Origin: a virus
Reading direction: 5' to 3' (one strand)
DNA: 6,104 nucleotides
IMG/VR virus record: IMGVR_UViG_3300020040_000004
Coordinates: 1 to 6,104 of that record
The notes under the pieces are model-generated. The model was not told where the DNA came from. It made no database searches and worked only from the letters and a program-made list of their open reading frames with translations. Shown in pieces: positions 1,080-4,927 of this stretch (positions are counted from its first letter, which is position 1; every line of letters begins with the position of its first letter). Made by a program: the position numbers and the translations under genes.

Positions 1080-2150
1080 TTAAGTAATTAGTTGAAGTTT
1101 ATAATGATCTCTCCAAAACTGGAGAATGTCTAAATTTAACCAAGTAGGGGGGTCAAAATCGGGCATCTTCCGAGAAGATGCAGAAAAACGCATTATTTGC
1201 TTTTGCTCCCACGTATACGACGCTCTACAGGATACGGCGGAATTGAGGCCGAACCGCTCAACACACAGAGACACAATACGCTTAACCAGAGAAGACTTGC
1301 TAAAATGTGCATAAGCATCAGCAGCGGCAATCGAACGCAAAGTCTCGTCTTCCTGTTTAAGATATCTAAGATAATATCGAGGGATCGAGTAATTATAACT
1401 GATACGCTTCTCGAAATTATAATAAGACCACGTCGAAACACGAGCAGAAGGGCGAGGCATATAACCAAGAAAATCACCAACGCCAGCAGATACGAATTTT
1501 CGCGTATAACGGCGATGTTGGAGGAGGCAAGATAAAGGTATAAGTGTTCCATCTACGGTAACGAATTTATCCGAGATTTCCTCGGGGTTAAACTGAATTT
1601 GTTTAGTAACATACTTAACGCAGTAACGAGCGCGCTTATGGGTAGCCTTTGCCAGCCACACAAAGCCAAGATCTCGAACAGCAGAACGAATGGTGTTATA
1701 AAGAACATTTGTGCCAAAGAGAAAGCCGTGAAAATGCAATCGAGGCTCATTTCCCGTCTCAGGATGAGTGCCGAACTCTTGAAAAAAGGCATGCTTGAAC
1801 GAATGACCGAGTTTGTGCCGCAAACGCTCATTGAAACGACGGATGAATCGAGAAGGATCAAGCAAAGCTTCGTTGTAATACTTCGGAGCAATCGTTATAG
1901 TAATGAAAATAGCCTGCTGGTTATTAGCCTTACAACAAGCGAGCTCACGCTCTAGGCGGACAAACCAGTCATTACGCTGACGACGCAAGCAGTCTTCACA
2001 CTTACCACACGGGACCATGAGCCATTGACGGGCGACATCCCAAGGTCGAAGAGCTAAGGCCGATTTAGCAACATCGGAGCCATTACGACAAGGGTTCTTC
2101 TTGTCAAAATAACGGCGATTTCGTATCCATATGGGAGAAGAGCAGGCCAT
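1080..2150 (-). CDS. VP4: Rolling-circle replication initiation protein (Microviridae VP4 / phiX174 A-like HUH endonuclease), 356 aa
   Basis: ATG at 2150-2148 and TAA at 1082-1080. There is a Cys cluster (PCGKCEDCLRRQRNDW) and an HUH-type motif (RLHFHGFLFG). There is also a two-tyrosine motif (ARYCVKYVTKQ, Y-x-x-K-Y), as in the phiX174 A active site. The capsid ATG follows 3 nt after the stop. Confidence 0.94.
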   Translation of the reverse strand: MACSSPIWIRNRRYFDKKNPCRNGSDVAKSALALRPWDVARQWLMVPCGKCEDCLRRQRNDWFVRLERELACCKANNQQAIFITITIAPKYYNEALLDPSRFIRRFNERLRHKLGHSFKHAFFQEFGTHPETGNEPRLHFHGFLFGTNVLYNTIRSAVRDLGFVWLAKATHKRARYCVKYVTKQIQFNPEEISDKFVTVDGTLIPLSCLLQHRRYTRKFVSAGVGDFLGYMPRPSARVSTWSYYNFEKRISYNYSIPRYYLRYLKQEDETLRSIAAADAYAHFSKSSLVKRIVSLCVERFGLNSAVSCRASYTWEQKQIMRFSASSRKMPDFDPPTWLNLDILQFWRDHYKLQLIT

Positions 2151-2350
2151 TACAGAAGGCTTCTAAGACAATCAAATTTAACACCAGGACGATCAAGACG
2201 ACAGCGGACGAGATAGTCTCTCGCAGGACCCTCGTCAGCAAACCAAGCGATAGTAACTCGCTTTTTGCCGCGATATGCGCCAATAGAATAACGAAGAGGG
2301 ACACCATCAACAGTAGGGGAAAATCTAAGTTTGAAATCGAAGTTATCCAT
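2150..2350 (-). CDS. Hypothetical small basic protein, 66 aa, translationally coupled to VP4
   Basis: ATG at 2350-2348. Its stop TAA (2152-2150) overlaps the VP4 ATG (2150-2148) as TAATG. By my count it has 13 K+R against 8 D+E. I recognise no motif. Its position next to the Rep gene parallels the small C/VP5-type replication accessory proteins of other microviruses, but that is inference only. Confidence 0.6.
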   Translation of the reverse strand: MDNFDFKLRFSPTVDGVPLRYSIGAYRGKKRVTIAWFADEGPARDYLVRCRLDRPGVKFDCLRSLL

Positions 2351-2589
2351 AATTTAAAAATATTACTCTACGCTTCGAAAGACGGTACTTTCGAGCGCGA
2401 GAACTACTACGTTTCGCCGGCCGACAGCCTTAACGGCTGGGACGCTGCGCGTCTTCGGCCTCCATGGCTCCACTTCGTTTGGGATATACCGGCAAAGCCG
2501 GTGGATACAAAAAGCCCACAGGAGAAGGGGATATCTCCTGGGGCCTAGTGAGTCAAAGGACTCTTCCACCAAGCGGGCGGGTCACTACT
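2351..2589 (-). other. GC-rich non-coding module with seven stem-loops: a structured ssDNA/RNA element that may be a complementary-strand origin, a regulatory region or an ncRNA
   Basis: No ATG-initiated ORF on the coding strand. Hand-mapped helices are 2583-2595, 2566-2580, 2550-2563, 2514-2544, 2488-2502, 2419-2460 (three-way junction) and 2371-2397. G+C is about 59% over 2401-2580 (106/180 by hand count). Coding samples I counted gave 27-48%. Confidence 0.6.
2509..2544 (-). terminator. Intrinsic (Rho-independent) terminator-like hairpin downstream of the 107-aa gene
   Basis: The minus strand reads GGCCCCAGGAGA-UAUCCCCU-UCUCCUGUGGGCU followed by UUUUU. The stem is 11 bp (2514-2525 pairing with 2534-2544) with a one-base bulge at 2518. 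The loop is 8 nt, and the five U are the complement of A2509-A2513. Confidence 0.6.
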
Positions 2590-2913
2590 TTAGTGCCCTT
2601 TCCCTTCTTCTTTCGACGTGCTTTCATTGTGAGTTAGATCAGCATTAAACATAAGGACAAGCGTATTATCGAAAAAGTCAATCGAAAAATCAGGATACGC
2701 AGTCAGGGCCTCTACAAGACAGGGAATACGACAATGATCGATATAGGGCGAAGCAGAAATAGCAGAATGCTCTACATGATCAGTAATAGGAGTACGAGCA
2801 AGAGCATCAAGAGGAAGAGTTTCAAACTGATCATCTTTGATGTAGCCTACCTGTACAAGGTCAACCTTCAGAGCCGGATTGATGCGGCGAATAACAACAT
2901 GAATCTGTGTCAT
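2590..2913 (-). CDS. Hypothetical acidic protein, 107 aa (MTQIHVVIRRINPALKVDLVQVGYIKDDQFETLPLD...)
   Basis: This is the listed ORF 2590-2979, but its first codon at 2979-2977 is TTG. The first ATG is at 2913-2911, only 7 nt after the stop of the upstream gene, so I use that start. By my count it has 16 D+E against 8 K+R. I recognise no family. Confidence 0.55.
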   Translation of the reverse strand: MTQIHVVIRRINPALKVDLVQVGYIKDDQFETLPLDALARTPITDHVEHSAISASPYIDHCRIPCLVEALTAYPDFSIDFFDNTLVLMFNADLTHNESTSKEEGKGH

Positions 2914-4794: not shown

Positions 4795-4819
4795 GATAGT
4801 AGAATTTAAAGAACGATAG

Positions 4820-4897
4820 AAAAATGCGCGGCCTCTCCTGCAGTCGTTACCAATAACCTTCAGCAATTCACGGACTCTCGCAGAAGGGGTCCGCGCA
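4820..4897 (-). terminator. Long imperfect GC-rich hairpin followed by U5: a terminator- or attenuator-like element between the capsid block and the pilot block
   Basis: Minus-strand UGCGCGGACCCCUUCUGC..AGU.CGU (4897-4870) pairs with ACGACU..GCAGGAGAGGCCGCGCA (4847-4825). That gives about 23 pairs with bulges, one mismatch and one G-U, around a 22-nt apical loop. UUUUU follows directly (complement of A4820-A4824). The size and large loop are non-canonical. Confidence 0.4.
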
Positions 4898-4927
4898 CGT
4901 AGCATATATCGTCAAGTAAAGGATATA

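Follow-up and report, generated by a model that had tools for sequence, protein, structure and literature searches.

What is the function of the strongly folded, GC-rich region at positions 2351-2589 of the IMG/VR virus record IMGVR_UViG_3300020040_000004? The window analysed here, the whole stretch of 6,104 nucleotides (nt), represents a circular microvirus genome; its length is 5,983 nt, and 121 nt occur at both ends of the window. All genes have the minus strand as their coding strand. An earlier note, made from the sequence alone, had described the region as one 239-nt intergenic module of seven stem-loops. We find instead that it consists of the end of a small gene, a terminator and a 133-nt cassette (2370-2502), and that this cassette is built from a hairpin H1, an element A containing a three-way junction, and a second hairpin H2. 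We propose that the cassette is a horizontally exchanged complementary-strand (single-strand) origin acting on single-stranded DNA (ssDNA), and we put the probability of this reading at about 45%.

Folding of the minus strand over 2351-2600 yielded -104.4 kcal/mol with RNA parameters, against -76.4 ± 5.0 kcal/mol for dinucleotide shuffles (z -5.63, 0/200), and with DNA parameters a z of -6.38 (0/200 shuffles as good), which bears out the expectation of a strong fold. Four of the seven proposed helices (2514-2544, 2488-2502, 2419-2460 and 2371-2397) are supported by relatives, with limits that we place at 2509-2546 for the terminator and at 2370-2398 for H2, whereas the three upstream ones (2583-2595, 2566-2580 and 2550-2563) are not. 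Several descriptive details had to be revised as well. The G+C content of 2351-2589 is 54.0% and not about 59%, a value that fits only 2370-2502 (59.4%; genome 46.1%); some 37 nt (2553-2589) of the supposedly intergenic sequence are coding, and the true spacer measures 202 nt (2351-2552); and this spacer, thought to be free of ATG, has one, opening an 11-codon open reading frame (ORF).

Is the fold of the cassette maintained? We aligned 79 distinct H1-A-H2 cassettes (alignment A1) and scored 39 pairs in 8 helices. Across this alignment 98.8% of the pair cells hold a pair. Two-sided changes affect 11 pairs, in 217 cells, whereas structures slid along the alignment give at most 4 pairs and 9 cells, and 0/500 shuffles reach the observed values. 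Compensatory columns within A are 33:105, 34:104, 39:99, 52:91, 53:90, 73:85 and 76:82, and several pairs occur in three types (CG, GC and AU at 52:91; CG, UA and GC at 53:90; GC, AU and CG at 73:85). The junction helices of A are all 100% paired, and the loop of one of them, P2, is G-N-A with all four bases occurring at N. In H1, pair 10:17 is changed from GC to AU in 36 of the 79 sequences. The covariation that the earlier note had proposed to test in relatives thus maintains the helices of the cassette, and the alignments show a structure under selection.

The sequence of the cassette is also constrained. Its mean identity is 87%, compared with 63% at fourfold degenerate sites of the adjacent gene for the replication initiator VP4, and it is the more conserved of the two in 99.5% of 2,926 genome pairs. 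In H2 the lower stem varies, but the upper stem with its loop is almost invariant and never covaries, a sign that the sequence as such is constrained there. Some relatives have, in place of A, a core B, a different one of ~100 nt that forms a long imperfect hairpin with 9 compensated pairs; H2 is common to type A and type B cassettes and to all three lineages in which we found the cassette.

How is the cassette distributed among close relatives? We collected ~110 relatives with VP4 72-94% identical and classified 91 distinct spacers. The shortest consist of the terminator only (69-82 nt) or of a branched form of it that bears GAA triloops (98-110 nt); the others combine the terminator with H1 and A (173 nt), with B (176-181 nt), with H1, A and H2 as in the window (197-212 nt), or with B and H2, H1 being present or absent (212-228 nt). 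Even relatives with VP4 86-94% identical differ in spacer class, from terminator only through to terminator, H1, B and H2. The modules are confined to this spacer position, and genomes free of them hold no copy elsewhere, so that the cassette is gained and lost in a modular fashion.

Does the cassette extend beyond the group of the window? The exact 21-mer of H2 occurs in 68 viral contigs, and extended cassette matches are found at 36 metagenome loci, which fall into three lineages. In lineage W, to which the window belongs, and in lineage X, a temperate microvirus (L011, L172 and others), the cassette runs in gene direction; in lineage Y (MG945515, L012, L030, L047 and others), where the core is A or B, the cassette block is inverted with respect to the genes. 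Between lineages the cassettes are 96-98.5% identical, although partial alignments of VP1 and VP4 give no more than 22-28% identity. Such near-identity in otherwise unrelated genomes indicates that the cassette was recently passed between the lineages, which therefore presumably share host cells, and it agrees with the suggestion, made earlier as one of several options, of a fragment acquired from elsewhere.

So far the cassette has been found only in microviruses. The PLSDB plasmids contain no similarity to it, and the microviruses phiX174, Chp2, phiMH2K and SpV4 share only chance 9-11-mers with it. In 596 Gb of cellular genomes the 18-mer core of H2 gave 19 matches, chance alone predicting ~17, and in no case does the match continue past the 18-mer; H2 as a host repeat, a CRISPR repeat or a prophage end was rejected on these grounds. 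Eight of the 19 cellular matches carry the H2 core, CGAAAGTACCGTCTTTCG, exactly and on the opposite strand in a conserved gene resembling that of ribosomal protein S2 (...KDGTFD...), six of them in Bacteroidales (L138, L145, L147, L150, L155, L156) and two in Gammaproteobacteria (L141, L152). With flanks unlike those of the phage, this occurrence is probably a coincidence.

Lineage X is also seen as a prophage (L172 3225-9138; also L059, L228, L226 and L168; core of the phage attachment site, attP, at L011 2531-2554). In bacterial contigs it is integrated between genes for a formate/nitrite transporter, ZnuA and an ABC transporter on one side and for HIT and RelA/SpoT proteins on the other. 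The ends share a core of ~23 nt, AATTTAACATAATGA..., whose reverse complement contains TTATGTTAAAT, which we take to be the XerD arm of the E. coli dif site; the core lies ~525 nt from the cassette and implies that lineage X would integrate through XerCD/dif. One contig of this lineage (L248, 8,343 nt) has two B+H2 cassettes 2,654 nt apart with different downstream flanks; a tandem prophage, a partial tandem duplication and an assembly artefact are all conceivable.

On which strand does the cassette act? At fourfold sites, the coding strands of lineages W and X contain T at ~0.50 and A at ~0.10 (TA skew +0.65), and phiX174, for which the virion strand is known, contains T at 0.59 and A at 0.09. 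The coding strand of lineage Y is the mirror image, with A at ~0.45, T at ~0.085, a TA skew of -0.68 and a GC skew that is also reversed. Since lineage Y combines this composition with an inverted cassette, the T-rich strand carries the cassette in each of the three lineages, independently of gene direction. A preference for NNT codons, driven by C-to-T deamination, is a general rule for ssDNA phages (PMC3278643), and we infer from composition that the T-rich strand is the packaged strand. The wobble pairs likewise point to the cassette strand, with 35 G:T against 7 A:C on the cassette strand of type A and four invariant G:T pairs on that of type B in lineages X and Y.

A broad related clade (VP1 45-57% identical) shares the mirror-image composition of lineage Y; it includes L002, L012, L030, L047, L209, L233, L252 and L277-L287 and has coding-strand fourfold A of 0.33-0.55 and T of 0.07-0.18. 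Host codon preference is an unlikely cause of the opposite skews because the lineages exchange cassettes and presumably share hosts. If the polarity of the cassette is indeed tied to the packaged single strand, a large group of gut microviruses might package the strand antisense to all its genes and form a 'negative-sense' branch within a family taken to be positive-sense throughout, a proposal that we consider tentative and rather doubtful. Within the literature collection that we searched, no prior description of the cassette element or of negative-sense microviruses came up. In two relatives of lineage Y with A-rich coding strands, long GC-rich structured spacers, non-homologous to the cassette, lie upstream of VP4 (L282 5561-6244, L284 5317-5973); their GTGC-TTC-GCAC hairpins correspond to GCGAAGC mini-hairpins when the T-rich, non-coding strand is read, and L282 also has one GCGAAGC-type motif on the coding strand.

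What could such an element do? We consider it most likely that the cassette acts in single-stranded viral DNA and not in RNA or duplex DNA. After infection or strand displacement it would fold into a three-way junction and hairpins resistant to single-stranded-DNA-binding protein; a host primase, a PriA-type primosome or RNA polymerase would recognise this fold and begin complementary-strand synthesis, so that the cassette would be a single-strand origin (sso), a single-strand initiation site (ssi) or a minus-strand origin. Recombination would pass it among unrelated microviruses infecting the same cells, in which it could work because it would be read by a host factor. A complementary-strand origin of the G4, phiX174 or M13 kind had been suggested for the whole 239 nt; it is the best-supported explanation for 2370-2502 only, and it comes with no similarity to phiX174 or plasmids. 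Other roles at the level of ssDNA, such as packaging or interference with host defence, take the remaining probability.

The hairpin loops are consistent with this proposal. P2 reads GAC-GCGNAGC-GTC with N free (GAC-GCGCAGC-GTC in the window), P3 has GCC-GTTA-GGC variants, H1 is shortened in other lineages to ACC-G(C/T)A-GGT mini-hairpins followed by TATAT, and the loops of the alternative branched module are CCGAAGG and GCGAAGC. GCGNAGC and GCGNNAGC are exceptionally stable DNA hairpins, much weaker as RNA, and occur in the primase origins of G4, St-1 and alpha3, in ssiA of RSF1010 and in the single-stranded promoters of phage N4 (PMC13037366). Mini-hairpin motifs of the G4 type are thus found at the hairpin apices of P2 and of P3 variants. 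Single-strand origins are further known to be orientation-specific, stabilising and non-essential (PMC4595007). The cassette, likewise, has a selected single-strand structure, is non-essential and is exchanged between related replicons.

Comparison with individual systems gives a mixed picture. Like the origins of G4, St-1 and alpha3, the cassette is a non-coding cluster of hairpins (~130-140 nt) of an ssDNA microvirus, on the viral strand as proposed here, with mini-hairpins of the GCGNAGC/GCGNNAGC type and variation among related phages. Unlike them, it combines two hairpins, one of them invariant, with a three-way junction, as opposed to three tandem hairpins, it has no conserved CTG start (CTG is present in P3 in some variants only), its host is probably not an enterobacterium, and its function is putative. 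The single-strand origins of rolling-circle plasmids and of integrative and conjugative elements (ssoA, ssoU, ssoT and ssoW; sso1 of ICEBs1) are read by host enzymes and swapped between replicons as cassettes. They, too, are structured, non-coding, ~130-250 nt long, orientation-specific on the displaced strand and dispensable or redundant; differences are that the cassette has no similarity in PLSDB, does not conserve the CS-6 motif and is so far limited to microviruses. With the n' (PriA) site of phiX174 and the minus-strand origin of M13/f1 it would share the nature of an intergenic folded ssDNA signal recruiting host priming, and its three-way junction could mimic a fork, but it has no sequence similarity to phiX174 and no promoter-like hexamers.

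Several observations weigh against a complementary-strand origin. Priming by the cassette is a step that we infer, and relatives with only a terminator manage without it, so that its benefit is conditional or redundant. The counts of changed cells overstate the number of independent events, as many relatives come from few related samples, and the strand argument amounts to one inversion event. The cultured gokushovirus phiMH2K also has an A-rich coding strand, and we therefore give such a strand less weight as evidence of reversed polarity; C-to-T mutation bias, and not selection, could have produced the G:T excess, and folding energy cannot discriminate between the strands (z -3.7 on both). 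Genome-wide, GCGNAGC is not enriched (6 found, 3.5 expected), nor is SCGNNAGS; what matters for GCGNAGC is its place at the apex of a conserved stem. No sequence similarity links the cassette to phiX174, to the other reference microviruses or to any PLSDB plasmid, and CS-6 of the ssoA type (TAGCGT) appears only when the free loop base of P2 is T and then lies mostly in the stem; an ssoA-type plasmid origin was discarded for the lack of both. Finally, the near-identity of the cassette across unrelated genomes fits a selfish mobile element equally well.

Could the cassette be such an element, that is, a selfish, non-autonomous passenger of microvirus genomes with a structure that serves its own mobility and not the phage? 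It would then spread between co-infecting phages by recombination or by strand transfer at the ssDNA level through an HUH enzyme, e.g. VP4, or a host Y1 transposase. Copies that are 96-98.5% identical in otherwise barely alignable genomes, clean presence/absence boundaries among close relatives, swapped modules, both orientations relative to genes and dispensability would all be expected of it, and the fixed polarity on the T-rich strand fits insertion into ssDNA. It resembles in this respect BOX, ERIC and Correia elements and the IS200/IS605-derived PATEs, which are short, structured, modular, non-coding, polymorphic in presence and found in either orientation. However, the cassette is present in a single copy per genome, always in the one spacer that precedes the replication module; by inspection, its boundaries show no terminal inverted repeats or target duplications; H1 is unlike H2, whereas the ends of IS200/IS605 elements are alike; single modules persist alone; and plasmids and the 596 Gb of cellular genomes hold no copy beyond chance. 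A miniature inverted-repeat transposable element, or one derived from IS200/IS605, was rejected on the basis of copy number, host genomes and the dissimilar hairpins. Mobility is, moreover, compatible with origin function, plasmid single-strand origins being likewise exchanged as cassettes, and we regard a purely selfish element, though the chief alternative, as unlikely. A structured RNA (within the polycistronic mRNA a stabiliser, a processing site or a translational regulator of VP4 and the 66-amino-acid (aa) ORF before it, or else a separate small RNA or ribozyme) appears clearly less likely to us. Its strong RNA folding, covariation that includes G:U pairs and, in lineages W and X, a position on the transcribed strand between the terminator and the next ORF speak for it. 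In lineage Y, though, the selected strand runs antisense to all of the genes, a point against an mRNA element, and only ~20 nt separate the cassette from the VP4 start, with no room for a promoter of its own; a scan found no sigma-70-like promoter. The C-GNA-G and C-GNNA-G loops are markedly more stable in DNA than in RNA, and close relatives with the same downstream genes dispense with the cassette. Rfam, to which the earlier note had pointed, yielded no family in the window at E<=10, and ARAGORN also nothing relevant; in six related genomes with type B or other modules Rfam returned only two chance-level matches, elsewhere in the genomes. The option of a ribozyme or known non-coding RNA thus found no support, given also that the selected strand of the inverted lineage is not the mRNA strand.

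A site in duplex DNA or a viral-strand origin, be it a nick site for VP4 (double-strand origin), a dif-like XerCD site or an operator/promoter, would account for the sequence invariance of the H2 stem and loop, as for a protein recognition site, and for the position just upstream of the replication gene; the temperate lifestyle of lineage X also speaks for it. We consider it improbable. An essential origin cannot be absent from complete circular close relatives, for which reason a viral-strand origin for VP4 was rejected, and one and the same H2 would have to serve Rep proteins that are only 25-28% identical. The dif-like core of lineage X, with its TTATGTTAAAT arm, is separate from the cassette, H2 has no such arm, and the window offers no convincing dif site, its weak matches lying inside coding sequence, so that H2 was dismissed as a dif-like attP; cellular genomes hold no H2-flanked prophage. 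The inversion in lineage Y would aim any promoter away from VP4, and the compensatory changes together with the wobble asymmetry indicate a single-strand fold. Last, the structure might be a by-product of a TTG-initiated ORF of 69 aa (2363-2572), which had been named earlier as a possible gene. The open frame of 69 codons does exist in the window, but of 51 genomes sharing this cassette only 10 keep it at 60 aa or more, internal 1-nt indels are common, close relatives have lost the sequence or have B in its place, lineage Y has it inverted, and the product has no family match; its substitutions are pairwise-compensatory and not codon-periodic. This alternative is effectively refuted.

To our knowledge, complementary-strand origins have been characterised only for coliphages of the phiX174 and G4 types and for filamentous phages, and we know of nothing comparable described for the abundant gut microviruses. 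The cassette would offer a testable candidate, with a supported fold, clear modules and natural knock-outs in the relatives that do without it. Its near-identity across unrelated phages suggests that non-coding signals for replication or other ssDNA processes move horizontally among microviruses, and it may identify phages that necessarily encounter one another in a common host. Should its link to the T-rich strand prove right, the cassette would serve as a sequence-only marker of the packaged strand, and a large clade would have its genes antisense to the virion DNA.

What occupies the remainder of the 239-nt region? An alignment of the genome tail to three GenBank relatives brought out a missed ORF of 24 codons, present in all relatives examined, in or across which the three unsupported upstream helices lie. 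Among 89 distinct sequences, the variability of 2553-2627 is 0.24 at third codon positions and 0.03 at first and second positions, and the codon differences are 230 synonymous and 41 nonsynonymous; the stop position is constant, with TAA, TGA and TAG all found there. Helix 2566-2580 is conserved with zero compensatory change and encodes TRPLGG, and helices 2583-2595 and 2550-2563 are intact in only 30/90 and 33/90 relatives. In the 38-nt overlap with the upstream ORF (2590-2627, minus strand), the variable sites are in phase with the codons of the small gene (third-position variability 0.24), so that the less constrained of the two frames appears to be that of the upstream ORF, in its C-terminal tail.

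The 24-aa product contains 42% lysine plus arginine and zero acidic residues. Its C-terminus, LGGRVL, resembles RGGIRL of the phiMH2K DNA-binding protein and RGGIRF of Chp2 ORF8, and the gene as a whole has the traits of the J/VP8 type: small size, strong basicity, a coding signal and a GG-containing hydrophobic C-terminus. Like phiX174 J, gokushovirus VP8/ORF8 and the phiMH2K protein, it is tiny and basic (32-43% lysine plus arginine) without acidic residues, ends in a GG-x-R-hydrophobic motif and is encoded just before a terminator or spacer; unlike them, it measures 24 aa and not 38-44 aa, matches nothing in hidden Markov model (HMM) searches and overlaps the ORF upstream. The protein thus resembles a J/VP8-like basic DNA-binding protein by functional analogy and a shared motif, which falls short of proven homology. 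Such a gene is of a kind that annotation pipelines skip.

The hairpin behind this gene, identified by a terminator scan and minimum free energy (MFE) folds, is a rho-independent terminator, being GC-rich, followed by a T-run and downstream of a gene. The same arrangement is seen in phiX174, where gene J is followed by a terminator. A GC-rich hairpin with a T-run stands at this position in most of the 91 spacer variants, although the stem sequences differ, and a crude automated criterion recognises a terminator in 48 of the 91. In some relatives a branched element replaces the simple terminator (L075, L126, L106, L114, L003, L087, L004 and L131, 98-110 nt; L089, 131 nt); it has a stem CCCCAGGGG/CCCCTGTGGG and two GAA-triloop hairpins, CAGCC-GAA-GGCTG and CCGC-GAA-GCGG, and the spacer of L089 represents a further variant of it.

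Table 1. Features of the structured region and of the genome around it, in window coordinates.
Feature	Position	Strand	Description
Hairpin H1	2488..2502	minus	ACCGGC-TTT-GCCGGT, then conserved TATAT (2483-2487)
Element A	2406..2478	minus	irregular closing stem carrying three-way junction 2419-2460
Closing-stem pairs of A	2478/2406, 2473-2472/2412-2411, 2468-2466/2418-2416	minus	
Junction helices of A		minus	P1 GGCCGA/TCGGCC; P2 GACGC-GCA-GCGTC; P3 CAGCC-GTTAA-GGCTG
Hairpin H2	2370..2398	minus	GCGCT-CGAAAG-TACCGT-CTTTCG-A-AGCGT
Terminator of the 24-codon gene (rho-independent)	2509..2546	minus	AGGCCCCAGGAGA...TCTCCTGTGGGCT, then TTTTT
24-codon gene	2553..2627	minus	MKARRKKKGKGTKVVTRPLGGRVL; its start lies within the end of the preceding ORF (2590-2922), in a different frame
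AT-rich leader of the 66-aa ORF	2351..2369	minus	10% G+C; homologous to the leader in cassette-free relatives
66-aa ORF	2150..2350	minus	between cassette and VP4, 1-nt overlap with the VP4 start; context, outside the structured element
VP4, replication initiator	2150 down to 1080	minus	
VP1	wraps around window ends	minus	
98-aa ORF and 63-aa ORF		minus	after VP1 in gene order
VP2, pilot protein	4601 down to 3321	minus	
Two hypothetical ORFs		minus	between VP2 and region 2351-2589

The closest GenBank relatives of the genome are uncultured Microviridae from faeces of pigs and other animals. A second long spacer (4795-4927, minus strand) contains a long imperfect hairpin, GCGCGGACCCCTTCTGCGAGAGTC ... 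GACTGCAGGAGAGGCCGCGC, followed by TTTTT, and is terminator-like; its folding relative to shuffles is not significant (z -1.56). The 66-aa ORF has no match in family and HMM searches and is conserved and present in most relatives. It is dispensable nonetheless, because it is almost entirely deleted in MG945664 (L001 5996-6039) and absent from L131, and both of these genomes retain VP4.

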